38,781 nt of DNA from a virus (lineage: Duplodnaviria > Caudoviricetes). The notes under the pieces were generated by a model. That model had not been told where the DNA came from, made no database searches, and worked only from the letters and a program-made list of their open reading frames with translations. Made by a program: the position numbers and the translations under genes. The stretch lies in the IMG/VR virus record IMGVR_UViG_3300033406_000018, positions 1 through 38,781 of that record; one strand, given 5' to 3'. Positions within the stretch are counted from its first letter, which is position 1; every line of letters starts with the position of its first letter. Shown here piece after piece: positions 3,763 through 33,930 of the stretch.

Positions 3763-4607
3763 ACCCCTCCCGCAACTTCAAAATCGATTGCCTCTTCCCG
3801 CGTCATGCGGAAGCCTGCGGCGTGTTTGTGGCCGCCGCCGCCGAAGGCTTTTGCGATCAGTGATACGTCGATGCCGTCTTCGGTTGAGCGTAGCGAGAAG
3901 CGGCGGCCGTCGGCATCGTCGTAGTAGGTAACGCCAAATGGCTGGCCATCGGACAGAACGCCGGCAACGTCGCTGGCGTACATCCATGGCACGTTGGCGG
4001 CCGGCACCAGGTAGTTGCCGAAGCGCATCTGGCGGCTGGCGTTGCCGATGATTGCGGCGACGTCGTTCTGTTGCTTACGAACGATGGCGCGGCCTTCGTT
4101 GATCAATGGCGTCATGCCGCCGAATATCATGTCGCCAAAGTTGTCGGGCGTGATCGGGTATGAATAGACCGCCGCAGTGATTTCCCGAGTTTGTGAAAGC
4201 TGAAAGCGCCATAGATCGCGGTCCTGAATGTAGTCGAACAGGAGCGGCGCCGGCCGGTTCGGGTGGAAGTGCTGCCAGGCGATCATGGCGCCGGAGCGCT
4301 CCATGTCGAAAACCAGCGTGACCGATGCAGGCAGGTCGACCAGGTCTTCCAGGGCTGTCTTGTGGTGGTCGAGGATCAGCAGGCTGTTGGCTTGTTCTGC
4401 CATCTGCAGAAGCACCGGGCGCTTGTAGCTGAAGTCGACTAGGATCACGTCCCGGCCGATAACGTCAGGCGGTGCCTCGCCGTAGATGCCGGGGTGAAAA
4501 TCGACGGCAACGTGTTTGACAACGTAATGCTCGCGAACGGCCCAGGCGGCAGCGACGCCGTCGGCGCAGCCGTGGTGGTAGATGCAGAGCGGTGTGGTCT
4601 GGTTCAT
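3759..4607 (-). CDS. DHH/DHHA1-family phosphoesterase
   Basis: CIYH..C.DG, LVDFS, ILDHHKT, QDRDLW, FSLRS, GGGGHKHAAGF. Confidence 0.9.
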   Translation of the reverse strand: MNQTTPLCIYHHGCADGVAAAWAVREHYVVKHVAVDFHPGIYGEAPPDVIGRDVILVDFSYKRPVLLQMAEQANSLLILDHHKTALEDLVDLPASVTLVFDMERSGAMIAWQHFHPNRPAPLLFDYIQDRDLWRFQLSQTREITAAVYSYPITPDNFGDMIFGGMTPLINEGRAIVRKQQNDVAAIIGNASRQMRFGNYLVPAANVPWMYASDVAGVLSDGQPFGVTYYDDADGRRFSLRSTEDGIDVSLIAKAFGGGGHKHAAGFRMTREEAIDFEVAGGV

Positions 4608-5680
4608 TTGTGGCTCCGGTAGGTTTTGGAGAGGTCAGACTTGATGGAATGGCCGCGCCGGCGAAGTTCGTTGCCGAGCTGGGCGCGGTCGTGGTGGCTG
4701 TTGGTTGCTTGCCTGAGCAGCCCGAAGTAACTGTTGGCTGTATCGAAAAGATCGGCGCGGTCCATGTGGCGAACGCGCTGGATTGCCTCGTTGAACGTCC
4801 TGCGGCGTAGCGTGCGACGCCATGGCTTGATGACCTGGCCGACGAAGTCAATGCCGCGGTCGACCGGCTGCAGGATGGTTTTTTTGGGGTTGAGACGAGC
4901 GGCCAGCGCCATGCCGAGGAAGCCCTCGATATGGTCACGCGCCTCGTTCAGCCACTGCGGCGATTTGTGCAGCAGCACGAAGTCGTCGACGTAGCGGATG
5001 TAGTGCCGGCAACGCAGGTCACGCTTGACGAACTGGTCGAGCGCGTCGAGATAGACATTGGCGAAGAACTGGCTGCTCAGGTTGCCTATCGGCAGGCCGA
5101 GATGCGATGGCTGGCCGGTGAGGCGCTTGTGTGCCGGGACGCGCTCCAGTAGAACGGGGTTGCCGCGCAGTTCGAAGTTCTTCCGTGGATCGTGGAAGAG
5201 GATGGTCTCGGCCAGCGCCATCCACCATGGCTCGCCGATGTGTCGGGCGAGCAGCTCGCGCAGGATGTGCTTGTCGATGCTGACGAAGAAGTTGGCGAGA
5301 TCGAGCTTCAGGTAGTAGGCGGGCTGGCTCCAGTTCTGCGTGATGCTGCGCACCTTGGCTTCAAGTCGTTCGGCGGCGTATAGGGTTCCACGGCCCGGGA
5401 TGCAGGCGCAGGAGTCGGCAATGAAGCTGGCGTAGAAGCGCGGCGAAACATGGTTGTGCAGCAGGTGATGCACGATGCGATCGCGGAACTCGGCCGCCCA
5501 TACTTCGCGGGCCTTTGGTCGGGTGATGACGAAACAAATTGACTTTCCGGGTGTGTAAGTCCCGGTAGTCAGTTCCTGGTGCAGTTGCCACAGGTTGTTT
5601 TCGAGATCCTGCTCGAAGCCAAGGGCGCTCTTTGTGTTGCGTTTGTGCTTGCGGCAATCCAGATAAGCGCGAAGCAGCAT
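4604..5680 (-). CDS. DGR reverse transcriptase (minimal start at ATG 5680; could start at ATG 5935)
   Basis: AYLDCRKHKR, PKAREVWAAEFRDRIVHH, LKLDLANFF, GLPIGNLSSQFFANVYL (DGR-type IGxxxSQ), YIRYVDDF, IDFVG. Confidence 0.95.
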   Translation of the reverse strand: MLLRAYLDCRKHKRNTKSALGFEQDLENNLWQLHQELTTGTYTPGKSICFVITRPKAREVWAAEFRDRIVHHLLHNHVSPRFYASFIADSCACIPGRGTLYAAERLEAKVRSITQNWSQPAYYLKLDLANFFVSIDKHILRELLARHIGEPWWMALAETILFHDPRKNFELRGNPVLLERVPAHKRLTGQPSHLGLPIGNLSSQFFANVYLDALDQFVKRDLRCRHYIRYVDDFVLLHKSPQWLNEARDHIEGFLGMALAARLNPKKTILQPVDRGIDFVGQVIKPWRRTLRRRTFNEAIQRVRHMDRADLFDTANSYFGLLRQATNSHHDRAQLGNELRRRGHSIKSDLSKTYRSHK

Positions 5681-5705
5681 CTCGAAGGTGTAGTTGGATG
5701 AATCT

Positions 5706-5787
5706 GCTGACGGCGCGGACTCGACACTCGGCAGAGAGGTTGTTGTTGTTCTGGTTGCCGTTGTTGAAGTTCTGGATAAACGCCGTT
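5706..5787 (-). repeat. DGR template repeat (TR)
   Basis: Reads ACG GCG TTT ATC CAG AAC TTC AAC AAC GGC AAC CAG AAC AAC AAC AAC CTC TCT GCC GAG TGT CGA GTC CGC GCC GTC AGC; differs from both VRs only at A. Confidence 0.96.
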
Positions 5788-5931
5788 CGTTCGCACTTTC
5801 CACGTCGCCCGACCGATCGTTCAGCCGGGAAACTGCACCGGACCGGCCAGCGGAAGACGCTGCGGTATCCATGGTGTGCATGTCCGTGTCCTTGTGGGAC
5901 AGGGGTGCGACCAGATTCATAGAGCGCACGG

Positions 5932-6309
5932 TCATTGGAGTCTTGACCCCACTGAAGCAGACGCGGTTGCTGAGCGCTTCAACCATCCGCCGGCCTGGCC
6001 GCCGATGGTGTTCGTCATTTCCATGCTGGTGGCCCATATCTTTCTCGATATGAACTTTTTGTCGAAGCTGACGCGCATCATCAGGGATACCACTTCCAGC
6101 CCGCGCAGGACGTTGCGGATGTGCTCGCAACGTTTTTCCCCGCGGCTGGCGTTGGCGTAGCCGATCTCCAGCAACAGGTCCACGCATTCGTCGTGAACCC
6201 GCTTGCCAAGGCTCTGCTTGAACGTGCGTGGCATGTTCAACTGAACGTCGGCCGCGAGGCTGAGAAGGTCATATCCCTTCTTGTAGATCGGCAGGTCGGT
6301 ATGGATCAT
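5932..6309 (-). CDS. avd: DGR accessory variability determinant (Avd-like four-helix bundle)
   Basis: 125 aa basic helical protein directly upstream of TR/RT; LPIYKKGYDL, MPRTFKQSLG, IGGQAGGWLK. Confidence 0.9.
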   Translation of the reverse strand: MIHTDLPIYKKGYDLLSLAADVQLNMPRTFKQSLGKRVHDECVDLLLEIGYANASRGEKRCEHIRNVLRGLEVVSLMMRVSFDKKFISRKIWATSMEMTNTIGGQAGGWLKRSATASASVGSRLQ

Positions 6310-6348
6310 GGTTGAAGGACTAAAGTGCTAAAGGATTAAAGTGGAATC
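6309..6348 (-). repeat. 8-bp-period imperfect tandem repeat after VR1
   Basis: GATTCCAC TTTAATCC TTTAGCAC TTTAGTCC TTCAACCA. Confidence 0.8.
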
Positions 6349-6821
6349 TCGCTGACGGCGCGGACTCGACACTCGGCAGAGAGGTCGTTGATGAGCTGGT
6401 CGCCGCCGTGGAAGCCCTGGAAAAACGCCGCTTTATCGCTTGGTGTCTTGGTCAGCAGCCAGTACCAGGGACTCTTTTCGAAGCGGTCAGCCAGTCGGTC
6501 GAATAGCGTGATTCCCTGGTGGCGGGTTGGAAGATGACTGTTCATGGCTGGATTGACCGACTCGGCGTGCTTGACCGCATCGTCGTAGTCCATCGCGGTG
6601 CTGTCGTCTTCGTCCCACAGCAGCAGATGCACAAGGCTGTCGCCGGCCAGCGATAGCGAGACGCCGGCATAGGTCGCTTCGGTGCCCGGCCACTTTTCAC
6701 CGATGTTTGGAATGCTGCAATTGGCGATCGGCTGAGCGGTGCGGGCCGTTGCCATGGTGGCGAGCAGGCCGACCGGCGGCTGTGAAAGGGTGATGTGGAT
6801 ATTCTCGATGTGCAGTTTCAT
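6336..6821 (-). CDS. DGR target protein 1, DUF1566/Lcl-C (CLec-fold)-like, 161 aa
   Basis: PNIGEKWPG..YAG, LPTR, WYW, C-terminal CRVRAV; carries VR1. Confidence 0.88.
   Translation of the reverse strand: MKLHIENIHITLSQPPVGLLATMATARTAQPIANCSIPNIGEKWPGTEATYAGVSLSLAGDSLVHLLLWDEDDSTAMDYDDAVKHAESVNPAMNSHLPTRHQGITLFDRLADRFEKSPWYWLLTKTPSDKAAFFQGFHGGDQLINDLSAECRVRAVSEIPL
6351..6432 (-). repeat. DGR variable repeat VR1
   Basis: 12 mismatches to TR, all at TR adenines; encodes AAFFQGFHGGDQLINDLSAECRVRAVS. Confidence 0.96.
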
Positions 6822-6830
6822 GGTGGGTTC

Positions 6831-6870
6831 CCAGTCAAGGATTGAAGGGTTGAAGTACTAAAGTTGAATC
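6831..6870 (-). repeat. 8-bp-period imperfect tandem repeat after VR2
   Basis: GATTCAAC TTTAGTAC TTCAACCC TTCAATCC TTGACTGG. Confidence 0.8.
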
Positions 6871-7451
6871 AGCCTGACGGCGCGGACTCGACACTCGGCA
6901 GAGAGGACGTAGTAGTGCTGGTAGCCGTAGTGGAAGTACTGGAGAAACGCCGCTTTGCCGCCGGGCAGCGCAGTGGATGACCAGTACCAGGCATAATCAA
7001 AGGAATCCTGGCCGCCTTGCCGGAAGGCATCGATAGTGGTTTGCGACGGTGTTTCATCGGTGTATAGCCAGCCCGCCGGCACGCTGTTGGCGTTCTCGCC
7101 GTCGCGCCAACTGCAGTAGTTCGTTTCCTTGGTCGGCTTGAAATGGCGGTAGCCCAACTCAAGTACGTCACGCGATGGGATACCCCAGTCCTGGAAGCCG
7201 TCGATGGTCAGTTTTGAGATCCGCTTTGCCGCTGGGCTGCCGGCCTCGATGAGAGCCTTCGTGTTCGCCTGGCAGTCGTTGGGGCTACCGGCGCCGAAGC
7301 TCAGGCCGCCGGCGGGCATAAGCATCGAGCGGATCTCGCCGGCTTGCTTCGGGGCCCAGATGATTCCTTTGTGCGTTCCATTTACATTGATGACGCCGCC
7401 AAAGAATCCGCCTTCCATGGCGGTGCCGATTTGAGGGATTTGTTGTTGCAT
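6858..7451 (-). CDS. DGR target protein 2, DUF1566/Lcl-C (CLec-fold)-like, 197 aa
   Basis: ATG 7451 after GGAG SD; PQIG..GGFFGG, DWGIPSRDVLE, WYWSST, CRVRAVR; carries VR2. Confidence 0.88.
   Translation of the reverse strand: MQQQIPQIGTAMEGGFFGGVINVNGTHKGIIWAPKQAGEIRSMLMPAGGLSFGAGSPNDCQANTKALIEAGSPAAKRISKLTIDGFQDWGIPSRDVLELGYRHFKPTKETNYCSWRDGENANSVPAGWLYTDETPSQTTIDAFRQGGQDSFDYAWYWSSTALPGGKAAFLQYFHYGYQHYYVLSAECRVRAVRLIQL
6874..6954 (-). repeat. DGR variable repeat VR2
   Basis: 11 mismatches to TR, all at TR adenines; encodes AAFLQYFHYGYQHYYVLSAECRVRAV. Confidence 0.96.
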
Positions 7452-8928: not shown

Positions 8929-8970
8929 ATTATCACAACTGCGATATCCAATGTCAACGCAATTGCGATA
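8929..8970 (-). promoter_or_regulatory. PL-like promoter with two operators
   Basis: TTGACA (8952-8957)-17 nt-GATAAT (8929-8934); TATCACaactGCGATA 8931-8946 and CAACGCaattGCGATA 8955-8970. Confidence 0.85.
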
Positions 8971-9022: not shown

Positions 9023-9661
9023 TTATTCCCCTTCGTTGTTCGGGGCTTTTGCATCAGCTGCGGCGATCCATGCCGATTCTGAAATGATCAGTGGCTTTCC
9101 GTATCTCGGCTTGCGCTGCAGGGCGGTTTCGATCTTTCTGCCGTAGGTAGTATTGGCCCAGTCGTCGCTGCATCCGGTGCCAACAACCAGGTAGTCGAGC
9201 TTGCCGGTAACGCTATCCAGCGCTTGGCCGCCGAGCTTCTCAACCAGTTTTTCGCAGGCGGCGCGAGTACCAAAGTAAAAAGTACCAGTCAGACAGAAGC
9301 TGCGGCCATCGAAAACAACTTCTGCTTCGTCGTAGGGTACAGATGGGCCGGCGGTCGCCGCTGATCCAGTGTCGGCGAACTCGTTGCCAGAAATGTCGGC
9401 GAGCAATGCTATCAGTTCGGCGCGTTCCTCGCTGGTGATGATGCCGTCGGCAAGGATCATGTTGAGGCGGTTGGCAATGGCGCTGCCTGGCCAGATTGTC
9501 GTGACTTCAATGTTCTGGTTTAGCCAGGTGGCAAGAAATGAAATTTCCTGATCGTTGAGCGTGCCATCTGCCGTCAGGCCGGCGCAGATGCCGAGCAGGC
9601 TTTGTGCTGATTTTGTCAGGCGCCGCCGCGCCAAGCTCGTTGCTGTTGCGTAGTCTTCCAT
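9023..9661 (-). CDS. BRCT-domain protein with helical (TerB-like) N-terminus
   Basis: FDGRSFCLTGTF..R...EKLVEKLGG....VTGKLDYLVVG...K...A...IISESAW; N-terminal ADGTLNDQEI and ADGIITSEER. Confidence 0.82.
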   Translation of the reverse strand: MEDYATATSLARRRLTKSAQSLLGICAGLTADGTLNDQEISFLATWLNQNIEVTTIWPGSAIANRLNMILADGIITSEERAELIALLADISGNEFADTGSAATAGPSVPYDEAEVVFDGRSFCLTGTFYFGTRAACEKLVEKLGGQALDSVTGKLDYLVVGTGCSDDWANTTYGRKIETALQRKPRYGKPLIISESAWIAAADAKAPNNEGE

Positions 9662-9730
9662 TGAATAAACTCCATGCTTTTGGTTTATCCAATTGTACTG
9701 GCTTGGTGCTACTGATGGAATGCCGTTGTA

Positions 9731-10075
9731 TTATATTCTGGCGACGGCGAGCAAGGCTCGGCGCTTGGCCGGCCCGCCCTCGCGAAAGGCTTTGATGAGC
9801 TCCAGTTCATGCCGGTTCATTGGTGAATGGAGTACGCTGCTGGCGGCATTATGGTCGATGTCCATCCATCCGACTGGCAACTGGCAGCCAGTTTCGATCT
9901 TGGTAACGGTATGGTCGCCGATCTTGCGATGATTTCCGCTAGGTAGTGGCGCTTCATTGAGTAGTTGGCCCAGGTATTTTTCGCTGGTGCCGCTGGCTTC
10001 GGCTAGTGCGGTGATGGTGCCGTATTCGGCAACCAGGTGCTTGAGATTGGCGAGGCGGATGGCGTTTCTGGTCAT
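9731..10075 (-). CDS. Second Cro/CI-type HTH regulator (114 aa)
   Basis: RLANLKHL...ITALAEASGTSEKYLGQLL...RKIG...KIE..CQLPVGWMD. Confidence 0.75.
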   Translation of the reverse strand: MTRNAIRLANLKHLVAEYGTITALAEASGTSEKYLGQLLNEAPLPSGNHRKIGDHTVTKIETGCQLPVGWMDIDHNAASSVLHSPMNRHELELIKAFREGGPAKRRALLAVARI

Positions 10076-10259
10076 CCGCCGATGTTAGGTCGGGCCGGCT
10101 TGTCGAGACACAGGCCGCTAGCGCGTCAACAATTCGCGCTATGAGCGGGCAAACGCCAACCGTGAATTATTTCACGGAATATGGCTGAAACTATGCTGTA
10201 TGTCATATTGTCGCTACTGGGCGACATCTGCATAATCCGTCCGCCGCCGAGATGGTGGC

Positions 10260-10285
10260 AAAAAATAACCCGGGCGAACCCGGGC
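10260..10285 (-). terminator. Intrinsic terminator downstream of cI and the 10372-10605 ORF
   Basis: cccggg-ttcg-cccggg followed by TTATTTTTTT on the minus strand. Confidence 0.7.
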
Positions 10286-10371
10286 CTCGGAGTTGAGAAC
10301 GGCGTCCCGCGCTCATGCCCGTCGTAGCGGGCTGGGGCTGCTCTTCTTGGTTGGCAGAGTTTATCCCCGTG

Positions 10372-10605
10372 TCAGTTGTCCGCGGTGCGAACTGCAGCGC
10401 GAAACAGTTCTGCGATCATGGCATTGTTTTGACCGAGCTGGCCGGCGCCTTTGACCAGCGTTCGGCCATCGCTGGTGATGATCAGGACAGCTGCGCCGCG
10501 CGCGCCGGTTACTTGAGCGGCCTTGATTGATTGAACAAGAAGGTCTTCCACGGCCTGGCGGCGCTGGCGGTCGATGGAGTAAACGTTAAGTTTTGCTTTT
10601 CGCAA
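10372..10605 (-). CDS. Hypothetical protein (77 aa, start uncertain)
   Basis: TTG-start ORF between cI and the terminator. Confidence 0.45.
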   Translation of the reverse strand: MRKAKLNVYSIDRQRRQAVEDLLVQSIKAAQVTGARGAAVLIITSDGRTLVKGAGQLGQNNAMIAELFRAAVRTADN

Positions 10606-10666: not shown

Positions 10667-11131
10667 CTATTTGTGTTCCTGTTGGTCGAGTTTATTCGGC
10701 TTTTCGGTAACGTCTGCAAAGCCGGTCAGGGCGTCCTTTTTGGCCGACTCGCGACGCTGGCGGTTGTCTTCGGTGCCAAAACGGGTGCGCAGCATGGCAA
10801 TCATGGCTTGGCGTTCGGCTTCAGGGATGCGGTTGATTAGGGCGGCTAGTTCGATAGTTTTTGGGTCGTGCTGATAACTTCCGCGCTGTTCTTCGGCCTT
10901 AGGTGATTGGTCGCCGGGGGCTATGCCTTTTCCTGTTTTTAGCCAGTAGGCGTCAACCCCTAGGGCGTGGGCGATTTCGATCAGGGATGAAGGCGCCTTA
11001 TCGCGGGCGTCCTTTTCCATTCCGGCAATTGTCGATTGTCCGAGCCCGGCAGCGTCTGCCAATTGCTTCTGTGTGAGGCCTCGATCGGTTCTGAGGCGGG
11101 CAACGCGTTGCCCTAGTGTCTCCGTTTTCAT
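10667..11131 (-). CDS. cI: CI-like repressor (XRE HTH, 154 aa, no S24 peptidase domain evident)
   Basis: TLGQRVARLRTDRGLTQKQLADAAGLGQSTIAGME...IAHALGVDAYWLKTGKG; divergent from cro. Confidence 0.85.
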   Translation of the reverse strand: MKTETLGQRVARLRTDRGLTQKQLADAAGLGQSTIAGMEKDARDKAPSSLIEIAHALGVDAYWLKTGKGIAPGDQSPKAEEQRGSYQHDPKTIELAALINRIPEAERQAMIAMLRTRFGTEDNRQRRESAKKDALTGFADVTEKPNKLDQQEHK

Positions 11132-11196
11132 ATCACGATTGTGATACGAATCAATATCGCAATGGCGTTGACGTGGCATATCGCATTTGCGATACT
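11131..11196. promoter_or_regulatory. OR-like region: three operators and PR
   Basis: TATCACgattGTGATA 11131-11146, TATCGCaatgGCGTTG 11155-11170, TATCGCatttGCGATA 11179-11194 (24-bp pitch); TTGACG-17-GATACT 11168-11196. Confidence 0.88.
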
Positions 11197-16983: not shown

Positions 16984-18190
16984 TCTCTGGCCGTTTGGCC
17001 GCAAGGAAGCGACGGTCATCGACCTGGCCGCCGACATCCTGCAGCTCGGCGCAAGCAAGAGCGGCCAGACGGTCACCGTGACCAAGGCGCTCAGGGTCGC
17101 CACTGTGCTGGCCTGCGTCCGCGTCATCAGCGAAGGCGTCGCCCAGGTGCCGTTCAAGTTGCTGCGCCGTGATGGCCGCAACAAGCTGGAGGCCTACGAC
17201 CACCCGCTGTGGGACATCCTGCACCGCAAGCCAAACGATGTGACGACCAGCTTCGGTTTTCGCGAGACGCTTGTGCTGCATGCCGCGCTGACCGGAAATG
17301 GTTTTGCGTTCATCAGTCGCGGTGGTGGCGGGCGTGTACTCGAGCTGATCAATATTGAGCCCGGTGCGGTGCGGATCGAGAAGTCCGACACCATGGGCGT
17401 GCGTCCCGTCTACATCATCACGGGCAGAAACGGCACCAAGCGTTTCCCGGCCGAAATGATCCTGCACATCCAGGGGCCGAGTTGGGACGGCATCGCCGGC
17501 ATGGACGTGGTGCGCCAGGCGCGCGAGGCTATTGGCCTGGCGATCGCCACCGAAGAGGCGCATGCGCGGCTGCATTCCAATGGTGCCCGACCGGGCGGCA
17601 TGCTGTCCGTCGAAGGCAAGCTGGACGACAAGCAGTTCAAGGATCTACGCAAGTGGATTGATGACAACTACGTCGGTGGTGACAACGCCTACCGGACGAT
17701 GATTCTGGATCGTTCGGCCAAGTTCATGTCGATGGCCATGACCGGCGTCGACGCTCAGCATCTGGAGACCCGCCGTTTCCAGATCGAGGAGGTGTGCCGC
17801 ATCCTCCGTGTCATGCCGATCATGGTCTGCAGCAACGACAAGGCCAGCACCTACGCCGGCGCTGAGCAGAACTTCCTAGCGCACGTTGTTCATACCTTGG
17901 GGCCGTGGTTCGAGCGCATCGAACAGACCATTGACTGCCAGCTGCTGTCCGACGCCGAACGCCGTGCCGGCTACTACGCGAAGCTCGAAGAGCGCGGCTT
18001 GTTGCGGGGCGCCCTCAAGGACACCGCCGAGTACCTCTACAAGCTGTCCGGCATCGGAATCATGACGCGCAATGAAGCGCGAGAAATGCTCGACCTCAAC
18101 CCGATCGCCGGGCTCGACGATCCGCTTACACCGATCAACCTGGCCGCCGAGTTGGCGAAATCGCAGAAGGAAGGAAGCGCTAATGTCTGA
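16970..18190 (+). CDS. HK97-family portal protein
   Basis: VLACVRVISEGVAQVP, NGARPG, DAQHLETRRFQIEEVCR, MTRNEAR. Confidence 0.95.
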   Translation: MNLSNLWPFGRKEATVIDLAADILQLGASKSGQTVTVTKALRVATVLACVRVISEGVAQVPFKLLRRDGRNKLEAYDHPLWDILHRKPNDVTTSFGFRETLVLHAALTGNGFAFISRGGGGRVLELINIEPGAVRIEKSDTMGVRPVYIITGRNGTKRFPAEMILHIQGPSWDGIAGMDVVRQAREAIGLAIATEEAHARLHSNGARPGGMLSVEGKLDDKQFKDLRKWIDDNYVGGDNAYRTMILDRSAKFMSMAMTGVDAQHLETRRFQIEEVCRILRVMPIMVCSNDKASTYAGAEQNFLAHVVHTLGPWFERIEQTIDCQLLSDAERRAGYYAKLEERGLLRGALKDTAEYLYKLSGIGIMTRNEAREMLDLNPIAGLDDPLTPINLAAELAKSQKEGSANV

Positions 18191-20117
18191 CACTACCGTC
18201 TTAGTCAAATATGTTGGCCAATCGTCATGGTTTGAATCAGCGGTCACCGGGCGTCAGACAAAGTGGCTCCCTGGACAATCTGGCTATGTATCTGATGCGA
18301 TATCTCGGCAGCTTGCTTCGACCGGGCTGTTTAGTGTTGGAGATAAAAAGCCAGTTATGTCTGCTTTTGATCCTGTCACCGGGGGGCTTGAAATCCTCGG
18401 GCAGGATGGTCTTCCTGTCATCAGCACCGAAAAGCAGTCGATCACGCTTACCGGAACTTATGTGAGCAACGGGACTTTGGTAGAAGAGGACTGCGGATTC
18501 GAGCCTGATTTTATCGTTGTCAAAGGCGATGCGGCGACCATCGCGGTGTTTCACTCAAAAGCATCGTGGTACGGCCGCACTGATGCGTTTAACAATACCG
18601 ACTCAACCGGCAACGGCATAACGATCACAAAAACAGGTTTTACTGTGGGAGCGGGTGCAGAGGTAAATACAAACGGTGTGACGTATCATTATTTTGCTTA
18701 CAAGGATAACGATTCAGAGTCGCTCCTACAGGGCAACTGGATGGGAAATGCGACGGCTGGCCGAAAAGTTGATCTATTCGCAGGTAAGCCGGTAAAGGCA
18801 ACTATCATCAAGCGCGATGCTGCGCAAAAGTCCGTATGGTCGTGGCTTGGCCTGCCGCAGTCTTATGATATGGATGGCAATGCCGGTGACTTCTGCATGA
18901 TCAACAATGACGGTACGCTGACACTCAGCGCGTCGAACTTCGTCAATCAGTGGGCCAACAACCTTGGCGAAGGCACTATCGGTCTAGCGATCACCGGCAA
19001 TAGTACGTTCGCTGGTGTTTATACAGGAGCCGGAGTTGCTCAGCGTACCCCACTTCCGTGGGGTATTGACTTCGCAATCATTCAGCCGCTTGGCGTCGTC
19101 GGCCAGAATGCCCACCTATGGTTCTCGACTCTATCCGCCGGGCAGCATGCGCCGGTGGCTCCTGCCGCGCTTGGAACTGGCCGCATTACGTCGGTCGATG
19201 AAAGCTCTATGCTGATTAGCTCGGGCGCTCAGTTGAACACGAATGGTGTGAAGTACGGCGTGATTGCATTCAAGCGCAATCGTGCGTCAACGCCTGTCGT
19301 CAAAAACGCGCAGACGATCTACAAGACTGCTATCCAGTTGGCAGCCGGGGGATATATTGACTGCGGAATTTCAGACAGCCTGAAGTTCGACGGCGCTCAT
19401 ACGCTTGAATGGTTTGGTGCGATCTATCCGACCAGCACGACGCCGTTTGCTGGCGGCGCTGGCGTCGATAACGAGGCCAACAAGCAATTCCCGATCTTCT
19501 GCCGGACTGGTGGCGCGGATGGCGTAGCAGGCGCCGTGTCGTTTGCTCTGGCCGCCCTGTGTCCTCGTCCAGAAGGCACCGGGCAGCGTGGCGGCGATTG
19601 GTCTGGAGCGTCGCTGGCTTGGGCTACTTTTGACACGTGGGCGCTGCCGCAAACCGGCGCCCCTGTCCTCGATAACTTCCCGGCGTTCTCCGGGATGGTC
19701 ATGCCGTCTGGTCGCCTTGCTCACATCATGCTTTCGCACGATGGGTCGGGCGGGTGGTGGTTGGCGATCAATGGACAGGTCGTCAAAGAGCGCAAGCGTG
19801 ATCTGGTCGCCGCCACCGGAAAGGCGAATATTTCCGGTGGGGCAGGCCATCGCACGATATTCGGGGCACGTCAGCGAGCCACGATTGATTACGCTTACGG
19901 ACAGCAATTCCGACTGGCTCGCATCTACAACCGTGCGCTTACGAAAGCGGAAATGGCGGCGAATTACTCCGCGCTGTTCAGCCCTCTGCGTAATCCGACG
20001 CCTGGTTTTATCGAAGAGTGGGACGCTAGAAAGGCGTCAGGAACAACGCTGCCGGCGACCGTCAATTCGGTAAATAACGGCACGATTGTCTCCGGCGTCA
20101 TTTCGTCGCCTTCGTAA
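18183..20117 (+). CDS. 644-aa beta-rich protein with C-terminal LamG/ConA-like domain, inserted between portal and protease
   Basis: GFEPDFIVVK-type repeats; HTLEWF, HIMLSHDG, LAING, RIYNRALT.AEMAANY; less GC-biased codon usage than its neighbours. Confidence 0.7.
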   Translation: MSDTTVLVKYVGQSSWFESAVTGRQTKWLPGQSGYVSDAISRQLASTGLFSVGDKKPVMSAFDPVTGGLEILGQDGLPVISTEKQSITLTGTYVSNGTLVEEDCGFEPDFIVVKGDAATIAVFHSKASWYGRTDAFNNTDSTGNGITITKTGFTVGAGAEVNTNGVTYHYFAYKDNDSESLLQGNWMGNATAGRKVDLFAGKPVKATIIKRDAAQKSVWSWLGLPQSYDMDGNAGDFCMINNDGTLTLSASNFVNQWANNLGEGTIGLAITGNSTFAGVYTGAGVAQRTPLPWGIDFAIIQPLGVVGQNAHLWFSTLSAGQHAPVAPAALGTGRITSVDESSMLISSGAQLNTNGVKYGVIAFKRNRASTPVVKNAQTIYKTAIQLAAGGYIDCGISDSLKFDGAHTLEWFGAIYPTSTTPFAGGAGVDNEANKQFPIFCRTGGADGVAGAVSFALAALCPRPEGTGQRGGDWSGASLAWATFDTWALPQTGAPVLDNFPAFSGMVMPSGRLAHIMLSHDGSGGWWLAINGQVVKERKRDLVAATGKANISGGAGHRTIFGARQRATIDYAYGQQFRLARIYNRALTKAEMAANYSALFSPLRNPTPGFIEEWDARKASGTTLPATVNSVNNGTIVSGVISSPS

Positions 20118-33285: not shown

Positions 33286-33930
33286 ATGGATCGCTCATAT
33301 GCATCCGGTGCTGCCGGTACTGCCCCTTCTGCGCCGGCCAGTCCGTCGGTTGGGTATCCGACGGGAGGCAACGCAGGTGCCGGGACGCCGGCCACCAAGC
33401 CAGGAGCGTACTGGTATCACATGATCATGGAAGAGCTGATGGCGATCATTGTAGCGGCCGGCATTACGCCTGCTTCCGGTACGCTAAACCAGTTGCTCCT
33501 GGCGCTGCGGGCCGCCGGTGTTTTTATCACTCAGGCAGTTTCGGACGACAGTACGAGGGTGGCTACCACTGGGTGGGTCCGTGCGGCCATGTCGAACATC
33601 GCGTCAGCCGCCGGGTTTGCTTACAGCTTCTCGGCAAACGGCTACATTAAATTCCCGTCCTGGCTGTGGGGGTGGATCGTTCAGTGGGGACAGATAGCTG
33701 CTCAATCGGTTGGCTCAGGGAGTGCCAATACTGGATCAGTGACATTCCCGCTCGCTTTCCCGAATTCCGTGCTGAGCTGGGGGTCTGGGTCGTTCAATCC
33801 AACCGCAATCTCGTATACGGGGGCCAGCATTTACGGTACGCCGACAAATACCGGAATGTCAGTCGCACTTCAAAATTCATGGACCAGCGCTCAAAACATC
33901 GGCGCTTGGTGGATCGCAATCGGGAAGTAA
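33286..33930 (+). CDS. Short tail fibre protein (214 aa)
   Basis: N-terminal EEL..I..AGITP...NQL..A; NGYIKFP...IVQWG, VTFPLAFPN, WIAIGK. Confidence 0.82.
   Translation: MDRSYASGAAGTAPSAPASPSVGYPTGGNAGAGTPATKPGAYWYHMIMEELMAIIVAAGITPASGTLNQLLLALRAAGVFITQAVSDDSTRVATTGWVRAAMSNIASAAGFAYSFSANGYIKFPSWLWGWIVQWGQIAAQSVGSGSANTGSVTFPLAFPNSVLSWGSGSFNPTAISYTGASIYGTPTNTGMSVALQNSWTSAQNIGAWWIAIGK

Follow-up and report, generated by a model that had tools for sequence, protein, structure and literature searches.

A diversity-generating retroelement (DGR) lies on a 38.8-kb contig of a temperate phage (IMG/VR record IMGVR_UViG_3300033406_000018; 61% GC), and the whole of this stretch, 38,781 nucleotides, is called the window here. 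The element has rewritten, at adenines of its template, the C-terminal tips of two small proteins, T1 and T2, which are predicted to be soluble C-type-lectin (CLec) folds, and the reading favored on balance is that both are made early from the repressor-controlled leftward promoter pL and bind host proteins within the cell. That the targets are early and non-virion proteins is considered quite probable. An intracellular role is likely, as judged from gene context, because the targets are encoded among repressor-flanked early genes and not with the tail. The more specific idea, that the partner of T1 and T2 is a defence or regulatory protein and the role one of anti-defence, is a tentative one, put at rather below even.

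In the mechanism known from phage BPP-1, a reverse transcriptase (RT) and Avd copy the RNA of a template repeat (TR), making errors at A, and the resulting cDNA takes the place of the variable repeat (VR) of the target gene. The window element is a complete, intact DGR. All of its parts lie on the minus strand in the order T2, T1, avd, TR and RT (Table 1), while the head, contractile-tail and lysis genes form a rightward region and a serine recombinase gene lies at the right end. A sequence-only reading had described a two-target DGR with an RT carrying IGxxxSQ and YVDD, avd, a TR of about 82 bp with eight AAC codons, and two VRs whose 12 and 11 mismatches all fall on TR adenines. Each of these items was found again. 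RT, avd, TR, VR1 and VR2 are all present and intact; the RT passes the Pfam cut-off for RVT_1 (E 1.7e-14), matches PHROG 1423 (E 1.6e-116) and has no internal stop in its frame; Avd exceeds the cut-off of its Pfam family; and the recount gave 12/0 and 11/0 mismatches (A/non-A), the non-A positions of TR being free of mismatches in both VRs. The 15^8 = 2.6e9 combinations calculated from the AAC codons are arithmetically correct. What that inventory had overlooked is the RT-15 RNA and the overlap of TR with RT. The probability that all mismatches hit A by chance is about 1e-8 for VR1, a value that includes one additional terminal A (13 of 83), and about 2e-7 for VR2. The whole contig was scanned on both strands with 30-nt TR words in which adenines were left free, and zero-mismatch matches occurred only at TR, VR1 and VR2, with no third VR. 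Because of this, the tail fibre gene (33286-33930) and the LamG/DUF7483-like gene (18072-20117), for both of which the absence of a TR match had been noted before, are not targets. At the initiation of mutagenic homing (IMH) sequence and its TR counterpart, IMH*, a GC-rich constant segment is followed by VR-specific ends, which are kept per target type in relatives.

T1 and T2 sit 1.5 kb downstream of the predicted pL, which is strong and close to consensus. From 8900 down to 778 the gaps between genes are -10 to 50 nt, and the leftward operon includes acetyltransferase-like, DHH, HD-phosphatase and methylase genes as neighbors. From pL to 413 the minus strand has a single weak terminator, a 5-bp stem within T2, and no promoter consensus was found on this strand between pL and the cassette. 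In phage lambda, the CI repressor silences the leftward early promoter in the lysogen. In the window, five palindromes with 24-bp spacing cover both pL and the predicted pR, the pL pair being shared with the right operator (OR), and the annotated operators of phage D3 have the same length and spacing. The palindrome count (14 versus 6.6 expected) is circular because the search pattern came from the same sites; the operator evidence is thus the spacing and the promoter overlap, and the count gives none. Of the earlier claim of a CI-controlled leftward operon, the operon and a promoter overlapped by operator-like sites were borne out, and CI is presumed to bind the palindromes and control pL.

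The same placement recurs across the clade. An RT search gave 542 viral contigs and at least 274 confirmed genome stretches, mostly from Betaproteobacteria and Pseudomonas. The 164 loci analyzed are the best 80 of the 542, the best 80 of the at least 274, the window and three isolates, some records occurring twice. In these loci 339 of 339 targets are upstream of RT on the same strand, with a median of 155 amino acids (aa) and a longest of 360. Where at least 5 kb is available upstream (134 loci), two targets are found in 92, three to five in 37, one in a single locus and none in four. The overall ratio of A to non-A mismatches is 4182:66, inflated by a detector that penalizes non-A mismatches. 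Gene labels come from PHROG for 86 of the 150 commonest gene clusters, rare neighbors being left unannotated. Among the 102 loci with enough flank, 85 have cI/cro/cII upstream or int/xis downstream, and 10 further have other early genes, three of these loci being Mu-like. The nearest annotated structural gene is 6.3 kb from the cassette, with only four structural clusters labeled. Early placement holds across genome architectures, since Mu-like phages (loci L004, L084 and L149) carry the cassette between transposase and terminase. In Magia, Haboob, Cruim01 and phPA-G it lies between the annotated repressor and integrase, and in QDWS and LPPA56 upstream of integrase; all VRs detected in the six isolated phages belong to small early-strand genes upstream of integrase, the Haboob and phPA-G stretches examined excluding the tail genes. 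Haboob and phPA-G have an identical TR and different VRs. With T2 alone as query no viral loci were obtained, and with T1 alone one.

By analogy, the non-virion status has indirect support from phage PA5oct, whose gp104 is a full-length homologue of T2 (hhalign 99.7%, 153 columns). The gene is within the block gp34-gp105, which is described in the accessible part of the report as mostly highly transcribed early, with three members named as structural (Lood et al., PMC7318152). gp104 is not among the 93 PA5oct virion proteins in the whole of Table S5 of that report. The MIJ3 proteomics, limited to four bands, was left aside. PA5oct gp104 lies in a GC-rich patch (0.55 versus about 0.3), and compared with the Haboob TR its tail is changed at 15 adenines and a single further base. 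The gene is intact in nine of nine virulent Wroclawvirus jumbo phages (L170, L171 and L174-L180), in about four VR lineages. No avd or RT match was seen in the nine genomes, and matches to the avd-TR-RT cassette, where there are any, are confined to the VR. Among these orphans, differences affect 36% of TR-A sites, as against 15% of the remaining VR sites and 6.5% of the 5' part. Their tips derive from a Haboob-type TR, and repeated capture from temperate phages would explain the pattern equally well as rewriting in trans. RT-less orphan targets are common and are also found in Medea1, D3 and PMG1. The D3 orphan, orf68 (L173:5851-6411), is the first gene after cI; its tail is read out of frame in the original D3 record and in frame in the PMG1 and phi_D3 records.

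T1 and T2 are predicted to be stand-alone soluble Lcl/DUF1566 C-type-lectin folds. This assignment rests on structure prediction, because T1 has no Pfam DUF1566 match and T2 reaches PF07603 only below the cut-off (E 1.7e-5, 25.6 bits versus 34.9). Both target models match the C-terminal domain of Legionella Lcl (8q4e), and the earlier description of CLec-like proteins is supported as to the predicted fold. For T2 this domain is the best structural match (VIA Z 12.3, root-mean-square deviation 3.5, 122 residues aligned), with Z scores of 6.4 to TvpA and 5.4 to Mtd; in the T1 model the CLec core is confident and Foldseek gives E 6.4e-4 to 8q4e. The T1 and T2 families align at 98.9% over the C-terminal 61 columns (hhalign), and sequence searches of the PDB with the targets gave no match below E 0.07. 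As claimed before, the targets lack a transmembrane segment: their maximum 19-aa hydropathy values are 0.86 and 1.21, and neither a hydrophobic segment nor a lipobox is seen in T1 or T2. A lipobox is found in 0 of 322 clade targets. A systematic pairing of one arm-bearing with one bare target was considered and rejected, because it holds only in part: under a crude motif rule, 74 of 108 loci are mixed. In VR residue use, no difference between the types was seen (p 0.48).

In alignments of near-full-length homologues (114 for T2, chosen from 226 matches, and 61 for T1, from 70), the eight AAC sites rank with the most variable columns, with entropies of 3.3 versus 1.4 and 3.1 versus 1.1 bits for AAC sites and scaffold columns. 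At the AAC sites Tyr is commonest (22%), followed by Asp (16%), Asn (12%), Gly (11%) and Ser (10%). Cys and Pro hardly occur, Cys amounting to 0.7% versus 6.2% expected from independent positions. This skew fits a selected binding surface, or a context bias of the RT. Concerted evolution shows, by sequence comparison, that homing took place in the past in the window's lineage, because the VRs track their own lineage's TR at non-A differences: where the TR differs at non-A positions from those of L019 and L102, both VRs follow it at 2/2 and 8/8 sites (two other relatives gave no anchor). In 28 orthologue pairs the VRs differ at 343 of 710 TR-A sites (48%) and at 7 of 1619 other sites (0.4%), with a flank difference of 10%, so that A-specific VR diversity, which the sequence-only reading had asked of relatives, is present. 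Strictly identical pairs are mostly duplicate records (24 of 26). On these comparisons, the DGR is shown to have been active in its lineage in the past.

Besides anti-defence, the sequence-only reading had proposed host takeover and effects on competitor phages, and other uses of the targets have to be weighed as well. The same operon and fold evidence would apply if they acted inside the cell against mobile elements or other phages, through superinfection exclusion or interference with competitors, perhaps at a low level of expression in the lysogen; fast-changing rival phages might reward hypervariation, and the place of D3 orf68 directly after cI would suit such a role. However, the lack of a promoter consensus on the minus strand from pL to the cassette, and the keeping of an intact orphan by nine jumbo phages that, being virulent, lack a lysogenic state, make this unlikely. 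The targets might instead be separate-chain virion adhesins or receptor-binding tips like Mtd, encoded early by happenstance. The CLec folds of DGRs are as a rule displayed outward, domains of tail and collagen-repeat proteins are among the structural homologues in BFVD, and the annotated fibre of the window is short (214 aa). All 339 targets are nevertheless on the early strand and none adjoins an annotated tail gene, the same targets occur in phages with differing tail gene sets, and the PA5oct homologue is absent from virions; a virion role is thus improbable.

It is also conceivable that the proteins build up in the cell and take effect once it has lysed, when they would cover receptors or debris and so spare progeny from loss. 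Soluble, signal-less, adhesin-like proteins would reach surfaces only through lysis, but late expression would suit this function better than the early-operon placement seen clade-wide, and the proposal is given little weight. Finally, the cassette might be a near-neutral passenger in a tolerant region, its variation having no selected function, as the frequency of RT-less orphans and the four targetless loci among the 134 with a long upstream flank could suggest. Against this stand the conserved scaffold columns beside highly variable AAC sites, the skewed residue use at these sites and the intact orphan gene in all nine jumbo phages, and a passenger of this sort seems very unlikely indeed.

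Several observations count against an early intracellular role. Among solved structures, the closest folds belong to surface or adhesin proteins (Legionella Lcl and a Bacteroides fimbrial protein), 18 of 322 clade targets reach a hydropathy of 1.6, and 7 of 102 loci have no early marker. A weak search found no fusion of a target to an intracellular domain. In this search, proteins of 362-2000 aa gave five distant matches, none with a DNA-binding domain; four of them carry Pfam accessions which we take to be of glycoside-hydrolase type, and Pfam on 12 long targets gave Lcl_C only. The PA5oct evidence is one orphan homologue in an unrelated phage, gp104 matches T1 weakly (87%, 44 columns), and low-copy proteins can escape detection by mass spectrometry. 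Searched with exact TR-constant patterns, metagenomes gave this contig alone (L168/L169) and viral contigs no match, and no second copy of the window phage was found in either. In the accessible part of their survey, Roux et al. warn that the target cluster PC_00009, discussed below, could consist of unrecognised structural proteins (PMC8144416).

If T1 and T2 are early proteins that bind host proteins in the cell, CI would silence pL in the lysogen, and the targets and their mutator would be switched on together at infection or induction. Progeny would leave with new tips on T1 and T2, and in the next infection selection would act on those still binding a variable host partner. A wider picture for the prophage clade is doubtful: an induction-coupled intracellular "antibody library", in which two to five CLec binders are re-randomised per lytic cycle against defence proteins, the RT is gated by translation through the template, and RT-less jumbo phages harvest prophage variants by recombination or in trans.

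The window also bears on how the RT is read. Directly upstream of TR is the RT-15 structured RNA. In the accessible part of the study by Weinberg et al., most RT motifs are left unassigned and a DGR role is only speculated for some (PMC5737381). The RT-15 motif of Rfam can be assigned to DGRs and not to retrons, because it forms the 5' flank of TR both in the window and in Cruim01. It contains AAGGA and an ATG (5881) in frame with RT. This ATG was rejected as a universal RT start, since it is open and in frame with RT in 90 of 140 loci but out of frame in 30. The interval from TR to the first conserved RT helix is free of ATG, GTG and TTG in 135 of 155 loci. A single phase of the AAC frame relative to RT is kept in 137 of 140 distinct loci, the TR-RT distance takes 14 values with every difference a multiple of three, and upstream of RT its frame stays open over at least 190 nt in 118 loci versus 1 and 3 for the other two frames, counts that come from related loci and are not independent events. 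A small subgroup (L042, L055 and L098) has a different phase, and the two of these inspected, L055 and L098, have their own ATG after TR. No synonymous-site constraint hinting at a spacer RNA was seen in the first RT codons. RT is thus inferred to be translated through the RT-15 RNA and TR, and real translation through TR is supported because the frame is kept across the 137 of 140 loci; a single transcript would then be both RT message and template. A TR inside the RT reading frame is known as the "group 3" class of DGRs (Schillinger et al., 2012, PMC3521204), a class which in the available part of that paper rests on annotation, whereas frame conservation is seen in the clade of the window.

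According to the accessible text of Wu et al., hairpins occur in just 34% of DGRs (PMC5758913). No GC-rich hairpin follows the VRs of the window (DNA minimum free energy -0.8 and -3.2), and the clade median there is -3.0 versus -5.0 at control gene ends. Instead, four AT-rich 8-nt repeats follow each VR. At least one AT-rich motif, picked after the data had been inspected, is present at 285 of 302 VR ends, as compared with 175 of 1777 ends of other genes, with a period-8 identity of 0.46 versus 0.26. That these repeats serve target recognition is a guess.

Table 1. Features of the DGR and the early region in the window, with the PA5oct homologue (pLDDT, predicted local distance difference test; ORF, open reading frame; HTH, helix-turn-helix).
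Feature	Position	Strand	Description
RT	4604-5881	-	IGNLSSQ, YVDD; putative start 5881; conserved core from about 5695
TR	5706-5787	-	82 nt, 24 A, 8 in-frame AAC codons; also inside open RT frame
RT-15 structured RNA	5784-5966	-	Rfam RF03018, 160 bits versus gathering 82; directly 5' of TR
avd	5932-6309	-	125 aa; PF22296 41.7 bits (cut-off 40); PHROG 3206 E 6.8e-25
Four AT-rich 8-nt repeats after VR1	6312-6343	-	candidate homing signal
T1	6336-6821	-	161 aa; conserved low-confidence N-terminal arm (about 33-35 aa) and predicted CLec domain
VR1	6351-6432	-	12 mismatches to TR, all at adenines
Four AT-rich 8-nt repeats after VR2	6834-6865	-	candidate homing signal
T2	6858-7451	-	197 aa; predicted stand-alone Lcl_C/DUF1566-type CLec fold; model pLDDT 96.7
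VR2	6874-6954	-	11 mismatches to TR, all at adenines
Predicted pL	8929-8969 (promoter 8957-8929)	-	11/12 consensus, extended -10
Two 14-bp palindromes	8932-8945, 8956-8969		overlapping pL
CI-like repressor	10667-11119	-	HTH_3 E 2.6e-12; PHROG 4 E 1.9e-17; start uncertain, longest ORF to 11431
Three matching palindromes and predicted pR	11132-11196	.	24-bp spacing; between cI-like and cro-like genes
PA5oct gp104	L170:2348-2839		orphan T2 homologue

Some further features of the window were noted. Between cI and pL (9023-10605, minus strand) are a second HTH repressor-like gene, a gene whose product has a BRCT domain (PHROG 3989) and one small ORF, and a terminator at 9003-8986 ends this gene group; the position suggests lysogen-expressed cargo. 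The DUF7483/LamG-like gene (plus strand, about 640 aa, Atlas feature score 0.94) lies between the portal and prohead protease genes, has neither a Pfam nor a PHROG match, and possibly encodes a head decoration or fibre. At the left end of the contig, a 105-nt direct repeat (74%; 11-115 and 225-329) overlaps a hydrophobic ORF of 72 aa. No terminal overlap of the contig ends was detected.

The cassette layout is common, and the element is not a new sort of DGR, because a 69%-identical relative belongs to clade 3/PC_00009 and Magia carries the same cassette. Prophage DGRs of clade 3 with short "non-structural/unknown" targets of DUF1566 type are already in print, as far as the accessible parts of these sources go (PMC8144416, PMC5758913, PMC7883833). 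In the accessible part of Roux et al., PC_00009 is classed as "non-structural/unknown" and includes prophage members, and the proteobacterial prophage DGRs of clade 3 likewise have uncharacterised targets; the text available there neither places them in an early operon nor gives them an intracellular role, and leaves a structural role open (PMC8144416). The assignment of the window is by proxy: one of six dataset identifiers gave a row in the supplement, that of locus L030, whose RT is 69% identical to the window RT and whose genome is listed as clade 3, PC_00009 and viral. Burkholderia phage Magia has a 67%-identical RT, and its short targets of lectin fold lie with avd and RT in the interval from repressor to integrase; its TR and target subfamilies are unlike those of the window. 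Its announcement names genes 47 and 57 and suggests a change of host range (PMC7883833); gene 46 (L162:12163-12627), which is not named there, is a third DGR target with 11 A mismatches and no others. According to the accessible text of Wu et al., two targets are found in 13% of DGRs, and about half of category "d" are short DUF1566-only targets (PMC5758913). The window resembles this category (CLec2, architecture B1) in its avd-TR-RT order and possibly in its DUF1566-type VRs, the Pfam DUF1566 match being below the cut-off for T2 and absent for T1; it differs in having AT-rich repeats and no GC-rich hairpin after its VRs. Legionella LdtA, an example of the category, is a surface lipoprotein, whereas no lipobox is seen in the targets of the window. 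The BPP-1 DGR (mtd-avd-TR-brt) shares the adenine-specific TR/VR pair, Avd, RT and a C-terminal CLec VR. Its RT is however only 31% identical, its single target Mtd is a tail-tip protein with little structural likeness to T2, and RT-10 RNA lies 3' of TR according to the available part of PMC5737381. Of BPP-1-type features, neither a tail or receptor-binding target gene nor a hairpin downstream of IMH is seen in the window. Among the papers listed in literature searches, which leave out most subscription papers, no title or abstract opening mentions an early-operon placement, a tested function or the jumbo-phage orphans. What is added here is the T2 homologue of PA5oct, located in an early-transcribed region and missing from the 93 virion proteins, and the RT frame that continues through the template in 137 of 140 loci.

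Phage DGRs are generally taught as tail-fibre switches of tropism. The clade of the window, with its 542 matching viral contigs, suggests a further role for them, in diversifying small early proteins, and the function of PC_00009 is an acknowledged blank. This function is now directly testable, since the cassette is present in cultured phages and single orphan alleles in PA5oct-like jumbo phages. If defence or regulatory proteins are indeed what the targets bind, the phages would possess counter-defence binders under continuous re-randomisation, and these would offer small natural scaffolds for the evolution of binders in vivo.

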